A stretch of 42,852 nt of DNA from Promethearchaeota archaeon (lineage in GTDB: Archaea; Asgardarchaeota; Lokiarchaeia; Sigyniarchaeales; SOKP01): contig JBHLNT010000019.1 in assembly GCA_048941265.1 (NCBI GenBank), positions 1 to 42,852 of the forward strand, in the 5' to 3' direction. The notes under the pieces are model-generated. The model was not told the origin of the DNA, ran no database searches, and saw only the letters and a list, made by a program, of their open reading frames with translations. Shown piece after piece: positions 1,332-7,729 of this stretch. Position numbers and translations under genes: made by a program. The first letter of the stretch is position 1. Every line of letters begins with the position of its first letter.

Positions 1332-1351
1332 TTTTATGTTCTAAAAAATAT

Positions 1352-1410
1352 TTAGGAGGCAGTCCTATTGTCATTCTTTCACTATCTTTTATTGAAAGAA
1401 ATCATTCAAA
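1352..1410 (-). promoter_or_regulatory. SECIS-like element copy 1 (3' of the GDCCVxC gene) plus downstream hairpin
   Basis: Minus strand reads UUUG-AAU-GA-U-UUCUUUCA-AUAAAAGAUAG-UGAAAGAA-U-GA-CAA-UAGGA-CUGCC-UCCUA and starts directly after the TAA at 1411-1413. Confidence 0.85.
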
Positions 1411-1629
1411 TTATTCATTCGCAATTTTTTCTTGTATATGTAGTCACGGCACGTCACCATAAGTACAAAAGATTCAATCTCACCCATGGGGATTTTCATG
1501 ACCCCATATCGGTTTATTGCATCCTTGACAAGTAGTCCACATTAGTCATTGTTCTTTAGGTATTTTAAGGGTATTTATATATCCGCAATGAGGACATGTA
1601 ACATTACTTTCTGACTTGAAATCAATCAT
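1411..1629 (-). CDS. GDCCVxC-type small (seleno)protein, 72 aa, 4 predicted selenocysteines
   Basis: Missed by the ORF track. MIDFKSESNVTCPHCGYINTLKIPKEQULMWTTCQGCNKPIWGHENPHGUDUIFCTYGDVPULHIQEKIANE*. TGA at 1546-1548, 1480-1482, 1474-1476, 1444-1446. Matches the family pattern TCPxCG...C...CxxC...GDCCVFCSYGxVPC with TGA mostly at Cys positions; SECIS follows. Confidence 0.88.
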
Positions 1630-1713
1630 GTTAATCTCTTATAATGGTTTATGAATCTATAAACACTATACATCAGATTTATTATTAAAAATTTAGTATT
1701 TTAATATATAAGA

Positions 1714-1773
1714 TTAGGAGGCGGTCCTAATGTCAATCTTTCACTAAGATTTTTTGAAAGACGTCATCCAAAT
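1714..1773 (-). promoter_or_regulatory. SECIS-like element copy 2 plus downstream hairpin
   Basis: UUUG-GAU-GA-C-GUCUUUCA-AAAAAUCUUAG-UGAAAGAU-U-GA-CAU-UAGGA-CCGCC-UCCUA, starting within a few nt of the TAA at 1775-1777. Confidence 0.85.
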
Positions 1774-1774
1774 T

Positions 1775-2248
1775 TTATTTTAAAAAATAATGAGCAAAAT
1801 ATTCGTCATCCTTTCCGTATTTTTTAAGTAGAATAGTTTTAAATTTTCCAATATCTAATCTGTTTTTCACTTTCTCTCATCAACATCCTGAATCGGGTTG
1901 TAAATCAATTACACTATCAGCATATAAATTGAAACCTATATTATCTCGGAGCGGCATAAACTTTCTTAAATTCCCTTCATCGTCCAGACCATAGGGCATC
2001 AGTCCTACATCGTCATATATTTTGTTTTCTTCAGGATCCCAAAATAGTTGCAGATAATTGTGAATATAACCATCGAATATCGGGAAAATTGATTCTTTGG
2101 GATTTTCAAATACAAATTTGTCAACCATCGCTAAAGCTTCAACAAATGTCGCATTATCTTTAACAAAAACAACGAAATCTTTGCCTTTTGATAATCCGCT
2201 TAACGTCAAGCTTATTTTGAGTGTAATCTTTTTAATTTTAATAATCAC
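1775..2248 (-). CDS. Uncharacterised selenoprotein B with CUU motif (possible beta-grasp N-domain plus helical tail)
   Basis: The ORF track stops at TGA 1880-1882. A second TGA follows (1877-1879), then the frame continues EKVKNRLDIGKFKTILLKKYGKDDEYFAHYFLK-TAA, clearly homologous to the read-through tail of the upstream paralogue. Start uncertain (TTG 2281, GTG 2248 or ATT 2236). Confidence 0.85.
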
Positions 2249-2312
2249 CTTTGGTATATTAAAATTTTGAATATTTACCAAATTATTTATAAGTTTTAAT
2301 TATAAAGAATTT

Positions 2313-2370
2313 CAGGACGCAATCCTATTGTCAACCTTTCACAAGCATTTATTGAAAGATGTCATTCAAA
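2313..2370 (-). promoter_or_regulatory. SECIS-like element copy 3 plus downstream hairpin
   Basis: UUUG-AAU-GA-C-AUCUUUCA-AUAAAUGCUUG-UGAAAGGU-U-GA-CAA-UAGGA-UUGCG-UCCUG, directly after the TAA at 2371-2373. Confidence 0.85.
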
Positions 2371-2811
2371 TTATTTTATTTTAAATTTAAAGTAATGAGC
2401 AAAAGTTTCATGGTCTTTTCCGTATTTTTTCATAACAATCCGTTTAAATGTACCAAAATCTAATCTTTCTCGCATAACATCAGCTCATCAATCAGCATGA
2501 ACGGATAAAGTGATATTACTATCGGGATATAACTTTACATCAGCATTTTCCATTATAGGCATAAACTCTCTATTTGGACCATACGCATTAACCGCGCAAT
2601 CTTCATAAATCTTATTTTTTTCTGGATTCCAAATTAATTGAAGATAACTATGAATCAATCCCTTATATAAAGGAAAAATAGACTTTTCTGGATTTTCATA
2701 TATCTTTTTATCTATCTCACTTAATGCGTCAACAATAGTGCCCTCTTCATTAATTTTAACTTCAAAATCGATACCATTTGTAAGCGGTTTTTCCGGTGCG
2801 ATTATGGTCAA
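2371..2811 (-). CDS. Uncharacterised selenoprotein A with UU motif; paralogue of 1775..2248
   Basis: Tandem TGA at 2488-2490 and 2485-2487, then ADVMRERLDFGTFKRIVMKKYGKDHETFAHYFKFKIK-TAA. The first TGA aligns without gaps to a Cys (TGT) in the paralogue. Start may be ATA 2826 after GGTGGTGA. Confidence 0.85.
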
Positions 2812-2874
2812 TTTTATTCTCTTTATTTTTTCACCACCCTTGTATTTTAAATAAAATAGATTTTAAACAGATGA

Positions 2875-3264
2875 TTATTTAAGACCTTTATCCTTTAGGA
2901 GTTGAGGTAAATCCTTCTTTAATGCATAAGAAGTGGTATATTTTTTCTCTCCATCAACTAAAACACATTTGCTCCTTAAACCAAGCTGACGAGCCTCTTC
3001 AGAATTTAAGTTTTTTGTTTCATGTTTAATATACTTTATATAAGGTGTAAGTGCACTAAAAATAAGATTCATAAATTGCGACCACTCACAGGCGCATGCG
3101 TCGAGAGGCACATATATATCGACATTTAATTTATTTGGATCTAAAGGTTTTTTAATTACCTCATTAATTGAATCATTTTTGATATCAATGTCATCACTTG
3201 CACAGCAGGATGAGTTAGGTGTACAACAGGGGCTTTCAATTTTATTTACTTCTTTTTCTTCCAT
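2875..3264 (-). CDS. Cys-rich putative metal(loid)-binding protein, thioredoxin/ArsD-like
   Basis: N-terminal CC..CC (SPCCTPNSSCC), then VDIYVPLDACAC and a CVLVDGEKKY strand reminiscent of thioredoxin-fold/ArsD proteins; lies in an ars-type operon. Confidence 0.5.
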   Translation of the reverse strand: MEEKEVNKIESPCCTPNSSCCASDDIDIKNDSINEVIKKPLDPNKLNVDIYVPLDACACEWSQFMNLIFSALTPYIKYIKHETKNLNSEEARQLGLRSKCVLVDGEKKYTTSYALKKDLPQLLKDKGLK

Positions 3265-3325
3265 ATAATTTCACTTCCAATTTTGATTTAGATTTAATTA
3301 ACTTATTCCAATATTAAATTCCAAT

Positions 3326-3637
3326 TTAACCACAGCATGAGTTTTGTTGTGAATTTTTTGCTCTTTGACGAGCATCCCACAAACAACCACATCCCTTTTG
3401 TTCCTGCATAATAATAGCTTGAGTAGGGCAATTTCTAAAACAAGCACTACATTCAGTGCAAAGTTCTGGATGCTTAATTTCATATTTACCAGAATTAATT
3501 TGTTGAGGTAGCCCGAAAGGGCATACTTCACCACATAATCCACATCCAATGCATGCAGAATCACTAATAAAAATACGAGGTAGTTCAATTGTTTGAGGAG
3601 TGCAACATGAACTCTCATTTGCTTTTAATTCTGTCAT
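3326..3637 (-). CDS. hgcB: HgcB-like 2[4Fe-4S] ferredoxin
   Basis: Two CxxCxxCxxxCP motifs (CIGCGLCGEVCP, CTECSACFRNCP), a GCGC segment and a C-terminal CC; directly downstream of an hgcA-like gene. Confidence 0.72.
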   Translation of the reverse strand: MTELKANESSCCTPQTIELPRIFISDSACIGCGLCGEVCPFGLPQQINSGKYEIKHPELCTECSACFRNCPTQAIIMQEQKGCGCLWDARQRAKNSQQNSCCG

Positions 3638-3678: not shown

Positions 3679-5328
3679 TTAAATTATATAAAATATTATT
3701 CCAAAAGCTAAAAAAATTAAGCTTATAATTAGTAAAATTTTATTAATTCGCGAAAATAAGAGGTATTCTGCCTGAATCTCTCTAGGACTTGTTGACATTG
3801 TATATCCGCTAAAAGACATCGTTGAAAAAAAGGCGATCCAAAAATAAAAGCTCAAGTTCCAGAGAATAAAGAGAAATGATTGATATAATATCCAAGAAAT
3901 CCCTCCAAAAATTATTACGTTTAAAGTTCCAAAGAATAATCCTTTAATAATAAATCTTCTCGTGAAGTTTGAAATAGGTAATAAAAGAGCAATAAGCATA
4001 TTTGTTAAAATAATCCAAATGAATATTTCACCTATCCACCATAGCTTATTTGACCAATTCAATGCTAGCAGTAAAAATACTATTCCTATTAAAGGCAAAA
4101 GAAAAATTTTTCGCAAAAGAAATGTTGTATGCGTTATTCCTGCCCGGATTCGATGGGATATCGAGAATTTGGCAAGTTTCATATTATCTGGTTTTTGTTT
4201 CGGTCTTTCTTTAATATACTTCGTAATATCCTTAGACCATATTGGACCATAGACAATTTTAAATGGAAATTCTTCAGAATTTTTCGGCAATTGTGGTATA
4301 GCAACACCACCGGCAGAGAGTTGGGGGAGTATTAAGATCTTCTTGCGTGTAAGATTGTGAATTCCAGTTGCCTCAACAGCTTCAAGTAATTGTTTATTAC
4401 CAAAATCGTTTCCACGAGCAGCACACCATACATTAATGCCATTAGAATCAACACATAAAACCCATGCATCAATTCCTTTTAGACTACGCATTACTTTTAT
4501 ATATGTATATTCATAATTCGCTGTAACTATTATCGGTGAATATTCATCAGGATGTCCTGATTGATAGATTCCTGGTTCTACCGGAACACGGTCAATCTGA
4601 CCCGTGAACAAACACCGATAAATCCTTAATTGAGAGCGAATCCCTTTAAATCTTTTAAGGTTGGGGCGATAATATCCTGGAGTATCACCATCCTTTACTA
4701 ATTCTATGGCTTGTATGGAACCATGTTTCCAAGATTTTTGGGCATTAATTTTAAAGCCGATTGGTTCGATATAATTAATGAACCATTTTACGAGAAAGGT
4801 ACTTTTTAATCGGAGTCTGTGTAATTTCTTTTTAAACCACCACCGCTTTAATTTAAAAATTAGCTTCCAAAAGCCCGAAGGAATAGTTTCTGCGGCTAAT
4901 ATTAATCGCCCATCTGGTTTCAGTGAGTTCCAGGCATTTCGTAAAAATATTTGTTGCTCAAGAGGTCTAAGTTCAGATAACATAAAAGTACTTACGACTA
5001 TATCCTTTGAGCTCTTTTCAATCGGAAAATCCTTAAGTGATCCTATTTGATATAAAAGATTGACATTTGCCTCAGATGGATAATTTTGCATGGCATAATT
5101 AATCATTTGGAAGTTCTTATCAATTGCAACCACATTATTTCCTTTTATTGCCATTTTCTTCGCAAGAGTACCAGTGCCACAGCCTACCTCTAGTATGGAT
5201 TGGGAATCCTGAATACAATCTAATACCCACTCTTGAACATCAAGATTTACACCCTTAGTAAGAGCTGTAAATTTTGAATCATAAGTTTCTGGCTCTTCCT
5301 CCAATTTTCGCATATAAGTTACGGCCAT
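3679..5328 (-). CDS. hgcA: Fusion of a class I SAM methyltransferase (CpaM-like) with an HgcA-like corrinoid protein and C-terminal TM helices
   Basis: LEVGCGTG SAM motif I; VEPGIY..G.PD..SPIIVTANY and GINVWCAARG cap-helix-like motif (canonical N(V/I)WCA(A/G)GK); LILPQLSAGGV; about 5 C-terminal TM segments. Confidence 0.75.
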   Translation of the reverse strand: MAVTYMRKLEEEPETYDSKFTALTKGVNLDVQEWVLDCIQDSQSILEVGCGTGTLAKKMAIKGNNVVAIDKNFQMINYAMQNYPSEANVNLLYQIGSLKDFPIEKSSKDIVVSTFMLSELRPLEQQIFLRNAWNSLKPDGRLILAAETIPSGFWKLIFKLKRWWFKKKLHRLRLKSTFLVKWFINYIEPIGFKINAQKSWKHGSIQAIELVKDGDTPGYYRPNLKRFKGIRSQLRIYRCLFTGQIDRVPVEPGIYQSGHPDEYSPIIVTANYEYTYIKVMRSLKGIDAWVLCVDSNGINVWCAARGNDFGNKQLLEAVEATGIHNLTRKKILILPQLSAGGVAIPQLPKNSEEFPFKIVYGPIWSKDITKYIKERPKQKPDNMKLAKFSISHRIRAGITHTTFLLRKIFLLPLIGIVFLLLALNWSNKLWWIGEIFIWIILTNMLIALLLPISNFTRRFIIKGLFFGTLNVIIFGGISWILYQSFLFILWNLSFYFWIAFFSTMSFSGYTMSTSPREIQAEYLLFSRINKILLIISLIFLAFGIIFYII

Positions 5329-5353: not shown

Positions 5354-6415
5354 TTATTCTGGGGGGTTCCAAAAGCCTCGCTTTTGAAGATATCTTCCTA
5401 AATAAACTATTGAAAGCATAACAGGAACTTCCCAGAACAATCCCATTGTAGTTCCTAATGCGGCAATCGATCCAATCCCATATATGGCAATCGCAGTAGC
5501 AATTGCAATTTCGAAATGACTTGAAGAGCCGATAATTACTGTGACAACAGCCTCTTTGTATTTAAGCTTAAAAAGCTTGGTAATAATCACATTATAGCTA
5601 ACAACGATTGCAAATCCAACCAGGAGAGGTATGCTAACTAAGAGTAAAAGTTCAGGATTTTTAAGTAAAACGTCTCCATTTAATGAAAAAAGGATAATCA
5701 ATGTTATTAGTAGTGCTACAACTGAAACTTTTCCTACCATAGGACGATAGGTGCCTTCAAACCATTCTTCCCCTTTTTTTTGTGTTAATAATCTTTTAGA
5801 TATTAATCCTAACGCTAAGGGGAGTCCTATAAAGAATATCAATGAAATTATTAATAAAGTTGTATCAATTGGAATATTTTGGATGCCAGTTAATAGAACA
5901 ACGATAGGAACATAAAGAAATATAATTGTTATGGTATTTAAACTGGTATTGGTGACATTTTGCTCTTGGTTTCCTCTAGCCATCCAACCCCATACAAGGA
6001 CCATTGCAGTACATGGTGAAGCAGAAAGTAAAATAATTGCTACTATTAACTGTTCATGACCAGCTAAAAAGATCCTTGCCATCATTAAACCAACAAAAGG
6101 GGCTACAATCCAATTAGAGATTAAGGTTAAAATTATCGGTTTTGGATTTTTCCCTAATTTTTTCAATTCAGATGCCTGGAGATTTAGCATTCCTGGATAC
6201 ATCATCAAGAATAGACATATCCCAATAGGAATAGAAATTTGGCCGATTGACCAGGAATTAATGGTTTCGCTAATTCCTGGAACAACTTGAGAAAGTACTA
6301 TTCCGGCAAGAATGCATAATGCCACCCATAGTGGTAAAAATTTACCAAAGAGACCTAATTCATGGGGTGTTCCTGCTTTATTTCTTATATCATTTTTAGC
6401 TTGTAGTTCACTCAT
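5354..6415 (-). CDS. acr3: Acr3-family arsenite efflux transporter
   Basis: PIGICLFLMMYP, NWIVAPF, ASPCTAMVLVW (conserved Cys), SSHFEIAIATA and EVPVML motifs; about 10 TM. Confidence 0.93.
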   Translation of the reverse strand: MSELQAKNDIRNKAGTPHELGLFGKFLPLWVALCILAGIVLSQVVPGISETINSWSIGQISIPIGICLFLMMYPGMLNLQASELKKLGKNPKPIILTLISNWIVAPFVGLMMARIFLAGHEQLIVAIILLSASPCTAMVLVWGWMARGNQEQNVTNTSLNTITIIFLYVPIVVLLTGIQNIPIDTTLLIISLIFFIGLPLALGLISKRLLTQKKGEEWFEGTYRPMVGKVSVVALLITLIILFSLNGDVLLKNPELLLLVSIPLLVGFAIVVSYNVIITKLFKLKYKEAVVTVIIGSSSHFEIAIATAIAIYGIGSIAALGTTMGLFWEVPVMLSIVYLGRYLQKRGFWNPPE

Positions 6416-6417
6416 TT

Positions 6418-7164
6418 TTAATTAACCTCATTTAATAGTAGTCTAGAAGTACTCATCCTTCTAGAATATTCATCTCTCATGTTATCGATGAATTGCCTTA
6501 AATTCTCATTAATTTGAGATAAATCTTCAGGAGGTATAGCATTTAGAAGTGATACTAGGTGATTGATTCCAGCAACTTCCTTATCGCATGTGTGACCAAA
6601 CCGTGGAGCGCGACATTCATGGCAGACACTTAAGGCAAAATTTTGAAGATTTTCTGTGTTAAAATCCTTATCTAAAAGAAATTTTGCCCCAGCTTCAGAG
6701 GAACCGCATAGTGAAGATCGCTTTACTATAATTTCTCTAAATTTACCATCTTCATCAATTTTAGGCTCATATATAGGTCTTCCGTAAAAAGTCGTAAATT
6801 CATCTACTTCTGGTATTCCCGTATCATTTTCTAGAGAACACATAGTTGGAGCATGAATGACTTGAGGATTTATTTTTCTCGCTTGAATTAATAGCCCTAC
6901 ACCGGGCAATACACCGAGTATTAACGGCTTCTGAAGTTCTGCTAGTTCTAAAATAAGATCAGGATGTCGAACGTAAGAAATGTATATATCGCAATCGGGG
7001 ATATTAAGTTTAAAATCATCATCCAGCATTAGATTAGAAGGTATTTCAGGAACCAGAATCCATACTACTTCAAAATTCTTCTTAATATTTTCAAAAGCTC
7101 TTTCACCGTACTTTCCATCTGACACTAATCCAACTTTTAAATTTTTAAATAAATGAGATGTCAT
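6418..7164 (-). CDS. DUF166-family protein
   Basis: GKYGERA, HPDL, CSL, RSSLCGS and CRA motifs typical of archaeal DUF166; first gene of the operon. Confidence 0.65.
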   Translation of the reverse strand: MTSHLFKNLKVGLVSDGKYGERAFENIKKNFEVVWILVPEIPSNLMLDDDFKLNIPDCDIYISYVRHPDLILELAELQKPLILGVLPGVGLLIQARKINPQVIHAPTMCSLENDTGIPEVDEFTTFYGRPIYEPKIDEDGKFREIIVKRSSLCGSSEAGAKFLLDKDFNTENLQNFALSVCHECRAPRFGHTCDKEVAGINHLVSLLNAIPPEDLSQINENLRQFIDNMRDEYSRRMSTSRLLLNEVN

Positions 7165-7327: not shown

Positions 7328-7729
7328 GTGATAATCATGAATACTAAACGTAAGGCTGAACTAATGGATATGTTATGCTCATGTAATGGTGTATGCAGTT
7401 CTAGTAAACATTTTGAGGATTTACAATTTATAGGGCAAGAATTAAAGTTTGATGAAAATTACGTAAATATGGCTAACTTTGGAACTGCGATTTCGTCTAT
7501 AGAACGTCTAATCATTCTCAATTCGTTAAAAGAAAAAGATAGATGCGTTTGTGAACTCGAAGCGATCCTTGATAAGTCACAATCTACAATTTCTCATCAT
7601 CTTAGGAAGCTAGAGAGAGCAAATTTGATAATGAGTTGGAAAAAGGGTAGTTATACTTATTACGGATTAAAAAAGGAACAATTACAGTCATTTTTAGAAA
7701 TATTGAATAAGGTATTTAATTCTGTTTGA
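7328..7729 (+). CDS. arsR: ArsR/SmtB metal(loid)-sensing repressor
   Basis: RCVCEL...SQSTISHHLRKL wHTH (ELCVCDL-like As(III) site) plus N-terminal CSCNGVC; divergent from acr3. Likely start is ATG 7337. Confidence 0.9.
   Translation: MIIMNTKRKAELMDMLCSCNGVCSSSKHFEDLQFIGQELKFDENYVNMANFGTAISSIERLIILNSLKEKDRCVCELEAILDKSQSTISHHLRKLERANLIMSWKKGSYTYYGLKKEQLQSFLEILNKVFNSV

Follow-up and report, generated by a model that had tools for sequence, protein, structure and literature searches.

Two adjacent genes on the minus strand of a 42,852-nucleotide stretch of DNA from a Promethearchaeota archaeon of the class Lokiarchaeia (assembly GCA_048941265.1, contig JBHLNT010000019.1; the whole stretch is hereafter referred to as the window) are, judging from comparisons with their homologues, almost certainly genuine selenoprotein genes in which two consecutive UGA codons specify selenocysteine (Sec). 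These genes (hereafter referred to as A and B; Table 1) are paralogues with 48% identity, as had been proposed in an earlier note made from the DNA alone, and they belong to an undescribed family usually found in arsenic-resistance operons. Under translation table 11, both open reading frames (ORFs) close at the first TGA. According to the explanation that we favour, the two UGA codons would be read as Sec under the direction of a kink-turn-type hairpin, the lokiSECIS (SECIS, selenocysteine insertion sequence), a few nucleotides past the true TAA. The product would be a small MoaD/ThiS-like beta-grasp protein with a chalcogen triad at the place where MoaD, ThiS and SAMP carry a C-terminal Gly-Gly. 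Taken as a whole (Sec-Sec paralogues, a new family, a beta-grasp fold and the handling of soft metalloids), this explanation appears reasonably probable.

Conservation beyond the paired UGA codons

Downstream from the paired TGA codons, the frames of A and B can be aligned over 40 residues without a gap, reproducing an alignment reported in the earlier note; 21 of the 40 residues are identical, and the codons comprise 17 identical, four synonymous and 19 non-synonymous pairs. The first Sec of A lies opposite the Cys of B, the second Sec of A opposite the first Sec of B, and an Ala of A opposite the second Sec of B, so the Sec/Cys juxtaposition claimed for the paralogues is indeed present. A six-frame search of 400 genomes of the phylum gave a match to this gene family in 138, with the same TGA-TGA and tail; in A and B, the coding frames stay homologous as far as the TAA codon. 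The matches were found in 117 of the 134 genomes of the window's own taxonomic family and in six other families of the class (1/1, 8/14, 4/4, 3/3, 2/2 and 2/2 genomes), with no match outside these seven families in the phylum sample. Every listed match spanning the site keeps two or three in-frame TGA codons, and the two rows without a TGA end short of the site. Members from other families of the class, with only 27–38% identity, retain (G/M/Q)-C-U-U, and a sister family provides three closed genomes in a single contig, each with one member that has two TGA codons. Both TGA-TGA sites of the window are covered by contigs from four other public DNA runs, and none of the 40 listed differences in these runs falls on the sites (44 more differences are unlisted). 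No RNA sequencing run is listed as covering positions 1350–3300 of the window.

Three subtypes were distinguished among the 34 genes of the first related loci: G-C-U-U, to which B belongs (28/34), HAD-U-U-A, to which A belongs (3/34), and SSA-U-G-U-U (3/34). The A-type orthologues in related loci share 64–69% identity, and the column of the first Sec of B is invariant in an alignment of 23 sequences. The earlier note had also described the differences between the tails as those of coding DNA and had called for an estimate of the ratio of non-synonymous to synonymous change (dN/dS), which agreed with this description. For the 31-codon tail of 28 B-type orthologues, the mean proportions of non-synonymous (pN) and synonymous (pS) differences were 0.145 and 0.712, respectively, with a median dN/dS of 0.108 (0.154 for the beta-grasp domain), and all 31 third codon positions were variable; the pattern of substitutions indicates that the tail is under purifying selection. 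At one locus (L033, genome G241), a TGA occupies the conserved Gly column of the tail (...DIUNFK...), which could be explained by mutation of GGA to TGA, by an additional Sec, or by a defect of the sequencing or the strain.

A word-indexed protein search retrieved 103 homologues, mostly of about 122 amino acids and ending at the Cys. Twelve of the 19 aligned database homologues were called with TGA as Trp ('CWW'), evidently by code 4 gene calling on short AT-rich contigs, and in these the conserved tail is visible; the others end at the Cys. A profile search of 1.84 billion representatives returned only 86 proteins. The CC or CCC homologues expected by the earlier note were absent from the data searched: the only non-Sec relatives, the named ones being from Bathyarchaeia, have C-(I/S/V)-(T/S) at the site and a shorter tail, with only the Cys kept. 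A pattern search with these relatives was limited by an alignment too divergent to yield a pattern, and a single protein gave two loci only.

lokiSECIS elements and the reading of UGA

A lokiSECIS-type element begins 5 nt past the TAA codon of A and 7 nt past that of B. The lokiSECIS has been defined as an AUGA, a 9-bp stem, an 11-nt loop with an A-rich start and a final G, and then GA, near the stop codon (Mariotti 2016, PMC4989117; this and the other publications cited are drawn on for the parts available), and the elements of the window display every one of these features: AUGA, 9-bp stem, 11-nt loop ending in G, and GA. In a few orthologues, the loop has 12–13 nt. The strict pattern gave 24 matches on both strands of the 5.0-Mb genome, three of them within 1 kb here. 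As a positive control, the same pattern was found elsewhere in the genome after VhuD-like genes (with one or two in-frame TGA codons) and a Prx-like UxxU gene. Two other matches in this genome, at C334:33517 (minus strand) and C349:2040 (plus strand), come after ORFs that contain a single in-frame TGA ('...GGNUTMAFCG...' and '...QGUGC...', respectively), which may be more hidden selenoproteins.

The element was present after 30 of the 34 family genes in the first related loci and after all seven further members (two from the same genus, five distant). Each of the four genes without an element of its own has another TGA-containing gene within about 30 nt downstream; in head-to-tail rows of such genes, the upstream ones apparently use the SECIS that follows the last, and tandem HdrA-VhuD genes have been reported to share one SECIS (Mariotti 2016, PMC4989117). 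The stem is supported by covariation: in 28 aligned elements (27 distinct), 93.8% of the cells are paired and six of the nine pairs change on both sides; the covariation score was reached by none of 500 shuffles, and pairing fell to 44–60% when the partners were slid. Rfam at its gathering thresholds gave no match in the whole window and recognised no SECIS family. A covariance model built from the SECIS of this family (R1) recovered the three window copies, which are training data, together with weak matches; as 150 of 13,814 candidates were scored, this is not a genome census.

Two further features of the elements were recorded. At L010, L020, L022 (A-type), L037 and L038, the frame is closed by the UGA inside the AUGA core of the SECIS, not by TAA or TAG, so a UGA belonging to the recoding signal would have to serve as the stop. 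A small conserved hairpin, AGGA-N5-UCCU, which may extend the SECIS or act as a terminator, lies a few nucleotides 3' of each SECIS (2300–2330 and 1708–1732, minus strand; also at L020 and L021), and the AAUAGGA flank is near-invariant across the 28 aligned elements.

The pattern seen in A and B is far beyond chance, given its recurrence in 138 of 400 genomes, the dN/dS of the tail, the lokiSECIS after the TAA, the contigs of other runs and the closed genomes. TGA terminates 348 of the 2584 long frames of the genome, and the conserved Trp column of the family is encoded by TGG in all 23 Trp-bearing sequences; TGA is not read as Trp and is not a global sense codon in this genome. The genes for SepSecS and SelD, the latter with one in-frame TGA, are present. 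Several observations nonetheless count against the interpretation of UGA as Sec. In a sister family (f3), the strict pattern found the hairpin after only two of five members, variant SECIS types being outside this pattern. The tRNA-Sec was not found in the assembly (361 contigs, 91% complete), for which ARAGORN reported only 10 tRNAs, none with the anticodon TCA and none in the window, and the RF01852 matches were all sub-threshold and corresponded to ordinary tRNAs, some with inserts. The best score of the PSTK model was 31.9 bits, against a cut-off of 290.5. PF09106 (the bacterial SelB wing) matched only Escherichia coli among the controls and is uninformative about the archaeal Sec elongation factor, for which no fitting model was searched. 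The failure to find tRNA-Sec and PSTK is a gap, not a contradiction, and Sec-Sec status is demonstrated as far as sequence can do so.

Predicted fold, gene context and possible role

The family is predicted to adopt a MoaD/ThiS-like beta-grasp fold, with the triad after the last strand and the helical tail after the triad. The AlphaFold model of B, based on a 38-row alignment, has a predicted local distance difference test score (pLDDT) of 88.1 and a predicted template modelling (pTM) score of 0.86; it starts with two long strands and a helix; three more strands, ending at residue 118, lead to the triad (residues 122–124), which lies within the least confident stretch, and two helices close the model. 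Foldseek against the Protein Data Bank (PDB) gave only weak beta-grasp rows (template modelling score, TM ≤0.38). In an exhaustive structural alignment, all top matches were beta-grasp domains: the transcobalamin beta domain (Z 7.0), CysO (6.9), SAMP1 (6.8) and MoaD (5.5–6.1), with intrinsic factor and haptocorrin also among them. The MoaD-type alignments stop at model residues 120–125, where the triad sits. ThiS/MoaD clusters are the neighbours of a Bathyarchaeial non-Sec relative in the Atlas, with structural rows at TM 0.52–0.56. Fold class alone is claimed here, because Z values of 5.5–7.0 are within the range also reached by unmatched models, which tempers the fold assignment.

For the analysis of gene context, 35 loci were picked for their flanking DNA from about 180 matches, 30 from the window's taxonomic family and five distant. 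Within 9 kb of the gene in the 30 loci of the window's family, an ArsR gene was found in 25, an ACR3 gene in 22, a gene for a thioredoxin-fold CxC protein in 25 and an HgcA-like block in eight; in 19 of the 25 loci with the thioredoxin-fold protein, it lies no more than 127 nt from the family gene. One of the five distant members (in genome G279) stands directly behind ArsR and ACR3, the only distant locus so arranged. In two others (L061 and L063), the family gene lies among genes for aldehyde:ferredoxin oxidoreductase and 4Fe-4S ferredoxin, on the same strand; of the last two, one lies by a cation diffusion facilitator (CDF) transporter and a prismane protein and the other 2 kb from SepSecS. 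A Bathyarchaeial non-Sec relative adjoins a helix-turn-helix regulator, a P-type ATPase and a heavy-metal-associated (HMA)-thioredoxin protein.

In the explanation that we favour, the triad, which would be Cys-Sec-Sec in type B, Sec-Sec in type A and Sec-Gly-Sec-Sec in type C, would be exposed and flexible, with a conserved helical tail, basic and about 33 residues long, after it. It would provide a very soft, low-pKa ligand set able to chelate thiophilic metalloids or metals, As(III) being the likeliest, and then to pass them on. The likely partners would be the upstream thioredoxin-fold CxC protein and the ACR3 pump, all under the control of ArsR, and a CpaM/HgcA-like corrinoid methyltransferase may be a further partner where present. 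The working analogy is ArsD, a thioredoxin-fold arsenic metallochaperone with Cys only that serves ArsA. Like ArsD, the family would consist of small soluble ars-operon proteins with clustered vicinal chalcogens and possible three-ligand As(III) binding followed by hand-off to efflux; here, in contrast, a predicted beta-grasp with Sec stands beside ACR3, and no sequence relationship was found (no Pfam match at E ≤0.1). Membership of the ArsD family was considered and rejected on these grounds, the absence of a Pfam match and the predicted fold. Binding and hand-off of a metalloid, as suggested by the ars context and the ArsD analogy, is a tentative proposal, falling a little short of what we would call probable. 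A soft three-chalcogen site on a flexible segment would here stand in an ArsR/ACR3 row next to a Cys-rich thioredoxin-fold partner. A metalloid role also fits the view, argued for HgcA and SAO proteins, that CC and CU motifs are signs of heavy-metal handling (Haft and Gwadz 2022 preprint). The row also holds a GDCCVxC protein with four Sec residues and a CC-ended HgcB-like ferredoxin, which we count in favour of this role.

Other findings pull away from a metalloid role. The locus counts are not independent, because the loci were picked by hand and the genomes are related. Of the five distant members first examined, four have no ars gene nearby, and the contexts of these four argue against arsenic as a family-wide theme. 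The type A motif has two chalcogens only. The family searches yielded no homologue with Cys in place of Sec, the invariant Sec column being occupied by I, S or V in the non-Sec relatives; a simple metal-binding site would not usually lack such Cys forms.

The alternative that survives best, which we nevertheless consider unlikely, is a redox centre, a vicinal selenenylsulfide or diselenide cycled by the thioredoxin-fold CxC protein. Such a centre might, for instance, convert arsenate into arsenite ahead of export by ACR3, or be a low-potential reductant of general use. The neighbour found most consistently is a thioredoxin-fold protein whose Cys pair occupies the canonical active-site position: in the window, the conserved C-A-C stands after the first strand of the thioredoxin-fold domain. 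The G-C-U motif also resembles the C-terminal Gly-Cys-Sec-Gly redox tail of animal thioredoxin reductase, in which, as in this family, a vicinal Cys-Sec follows Gly on a flexible segment past the folded domain; that enzyme, however, is a flavoenzyme, whereas the present family has a second Sec, about 33 further residues and a small beta-grasp carrier. The operon of the window contains no ArsC gene, but a replacement arsenate reductase is not needed, because five ArsC candidates of the low-molecular-weight (LMW)-phosphatase type exist elsewhere in the genome, on other contigs. PF03960 (ArsC) was not found in the genome, which neither supports nor excludes a reductase role. Moreover, a partner with CxC rather than CxxC, and with CC pairs, is equally compatible with metal binding.

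A more specific possibility, to which we give only a small chance, is a device that requires selenium as such: a beta-grasp derived from MoaD/ThiS in which an obligate vicinal Sec-Sec, irreplaceable by Cys, performs Se-dependent chemistry on oxyanion-forming elements in Lokiarchaeia. If this were true, the proteins of ars operons might form As-Se/As-S species for export or for corrinoid-dependent methylation, and the distant members linked to aldehyde:ferredoxin oxidoreductase might serve tungsten or molybdenum pterin centres. The family would then represent a new branch of the beta-grasp chalcogen carriers and the first case in nature of a protein built on adjacent selenocysteines.

Slightly less credible again is a carrier of selenium or sulfur descended from MoaD/ThiS, in which the side chains of Cys-Sec-Sec would replace the C-terminal thiocarboxylate and deliver S or Se to cofactors or metalloids. 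ThiS and MoaD belong to the five-stranded sulfur-transfer clade of the beta-grasp fold (PMC1949818). The predicted fold of B resembles MoaD, ThiS, CysO and SAMP (Z 5.5–6.9 over 79–83 residues at 2.9–3.3 Å), with the triad, a reactive chalcogen group after the last strand, at the position of their C-terminal tail. Two distant members lie inside clusters for aldehyde:ferredoxin oxidoreductases, which are pterin-cofactor enzymes, and another lies near SepSecS, and Sec is never swapped for Cys. However, the family has no Gly-Gly terminus, the chain running on for about 33 residues beyond G-C-U-U, and the Pfam search of the family protein yielded no family at E ≤0.1, ThiS (PF02597) included. Its chalcogens are encoded side chains that are not loaded, and it has an extra helical tail. 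No E1-like or MoaE-like neighbour was found in the ORFs scanned, and the prevailing context is that of arsenic resistance, not cofactor synthesis.

We consider it very improbable that the family assists the HgcA-like corrinoid methyltransferase as an accessory subunit, with a beta-grasp that binds the corrinoid in the manner of the transcobalamin beta domain and a triad that presents the metal for methylation in trans, like the N-terminal PCUGP arm of bacterial HgcA. The structural alignment does rank the transcobalamin beta domain first, and intrinsic factor and haptocorrin follow closely, but a Z of 7 does not distinguish transcobalamin-type from MoaD-type beta-grasps. The CpaM/HgcA-like and HgcB-like genes share the row in the window and in eight of the 30 loci, but the other 22 have the family without an HgcA-like gene. 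The CU motif of HgcA has been described (Haft and Gwadz 2022), and the bacterial HgcA and SAO selenoproteins are, like this family, cut at the Cys-Sec in databases and linked to heavy-metal or organometallic handling; they differ in having a bacterial SECIS, other folds and a single Sec, as against C-U-U, U-U or U-G-U-U here. Least credible of all is that the UGA codons are not Sec, the genes ending at the first TGA before a non-coding tail or TGA encoding Trp: the 'CWW' calls in 12 of 19 database homologues and the tRNA-Sec not found in this assembly would fit, but this reading is already contradicted by the tail dN/dS of 0.108 with every third position variable, the covarying SECIS after the TAA, the 348 long frames ended by TGA, the conserved Trp that is always TGG, and the presence of SepSecS and of SelD with an in-frame TGA.

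Relation to known selenoproteins and the surrounding gene row

No Pfam or NCBIfam model matches the family, consistent with its description in the earlier note as unrecognised. That note had also placed it outside the usual archaeal selenoprotein families, and the family is indeed unnamed in the parts available of Mariotti 2016, Huang 2024, Sun 2021 and a 2026 review, which in the last case include much of Table 1 (the supplementary tables being outside this coverage). The full-text literature on adjacent or vicinal selenocysteine, or on Asgard selenoproteins with arsenic, yielded nothing relevant, the tails of selenoprotein P lying outside the scope of this search. The same review counts 11 selenoprotein families in archaea; the present family would be the twelfth, widespread in Lokiarchaeia, and the GDCCVxC gene with four Sec codons a further archaeal selenoprotein. 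The lokiarchaeial VhuD, HdrA, VhuU and Prx-like genes (PMC4989117) resemble this family in their recoding signal, in encoding proteins with several Sec residues and in having tandem genes that share one SECIS. They have CxxU or UxxU boxes, whereas the Sec residues here are adjacent, and they differ from this family, for which no Cys homologue was seen, in kind, fold and context.

Earlier discovery methods depended on known families or Cys homologues (Mariotti 2016, PMC4989117), which this family lacks, and earlier surveys may have missed it for that reason; it has also been missed because gene callers stop at UGA codons. Surveys of Asgard archaea based on homology or on Cys partners would thus overlook selenoproteins without Cys homologues, and re-annotation is needed for at least 100 database entries that are cut short or wrongly translated (e.g. 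'CWW'). A vicinal diselenol site would be chemically unusual, and adjacent Sec codons would provide a stringent natural test of the lokiSECIS machinery, a proposed forerunner of the eukaryotic system. Because the family is linked with ArsR, ACR3 and HgcAB-like genes, it can be tested directly whether selenium takes part in the handling of arsenic or heavy metals by archaea.

On the minus strand of the window, the row runs in the order DUF166, ACR3, CpaM-HgcA-like fusion, HgcB-like ferredoxin, Cys-rich protein, A, B and GDCCVxC, with ArsR divergent upstream (Table 1).

Table 1. Features of the gene row containing A and B, with positions in the window
Feature	Position	Strand	Details
Gene A ('HAD-U-U-A' subtype)	2371..2811 (including TAA); coding 2811..2374	minus	146 codons; predicted beta-grasp domain, putative Sec108-Sec109, conserved 37-residue tail; TAA at 2373-2371
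Adjacent UGA codons 108-109 of gene A	2485..2490	minus	in-frame TGA-TGA, putative Sec codons
lokiSECIS of gene A	2323..2371	minus	core AUGA from 2365, 9-bp stem, 11-nt loop, GA ending at 2331, conserved flanks
Gene B ('G-C-U-U' subtype)	1775..2281 (including TAA); coding 2281..1778	minus	168 codons from TTG 2281, or 157 from GTG 2248; predicted beta-grasp domain, Cys133 and putative Sec134-Sec135, helical tail; TAA at 1777-1775
Cys133-TGA134-TGA135 of gene B	1877..1885	minus	TGT/TGC-TGA-TGA, putative Cys-Sec-Sec codons
lokiSECIS of gene B	1725..1773	minus	core AUGA from 1767, GA ending at 1733
GDCCVxC-domain selenoprotein gene	1414..1629	minus	71 codons + TAA; in-frame TGA at codons 28, 50, 52 and 62
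lokiSECIS of the GDCCVxC gene	1363..1411	minus	AUGA at 1405
Cys-rich partner gene ('CCprot')	2875..3264	minus	129 aa; disordered N-terminus with two CC pairs; thioredoxin-fold domain
HgcB-like 2x[4Fe-4S] ferredoxin	3326..3637	minus	CC near both ends; NF040864, 53.5 bits (cut-off 99)
CpaM-type S-adenosylmethionine (SAM) methyltransferase + HgcA-like corrinoid/membrane fusion	3679..5328	minus	NF043040, 138.8 bits; NF040863, 171.9 bits; both below cut-offs
ACR3-family arsenite efflux transporter	5354..6415	minus	TIGR00832, 282.4 bits (cut-off 282.8); Pfam SBF
DUF166 protein, head of the row	6418..7164	minus	
ArsR-family regulator, divergent	7328..7729	plus	Cys-rich N-terminus; PF01022, E = 1.8e-16

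The product of the GDCCVxC gene matched NCBIfam NF041374 with 50.7 bits (cut-off 40), covering profile positions 1–58 of 58. This 71-residue protein comprises a zinc ribbon and a GDCCVxC domain, with its putative Sec residues in the context G-U-D-U...P-U and one earlier. In the available part of the 2026 review, a table lists NF041374 as 'GOS_B' with one Sec, and the model is absent from the three families considered exclusive to Asgard archaea. The GDCCVxC gene adjoins the family in the window and at L031; a regular expression for the GDCCVxC motif found it in none of the 35 context loci, and tblastn with stops would miss such a gene.

A true HgcA/HgcB mercury methylation pair was rejected for the neighbouring genes, as all equivalog scores were below the cut-off (171.9 against 275 for the HgcA profile and 173.9 against 285 for HgcAB_like), and these genes are called HgcAB-like only. 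With a CpaM-HgcA-like block in an ArsR/ACR3 row, the substrate of a corrinoid-dependent methylation may be arsenic or another metalloid, and not mercury. Elsewhere in this genome, three genes of the LMW-phosphatase type (ArsC-like) stand in tandem at C211:27013-28499 on the minus strand.

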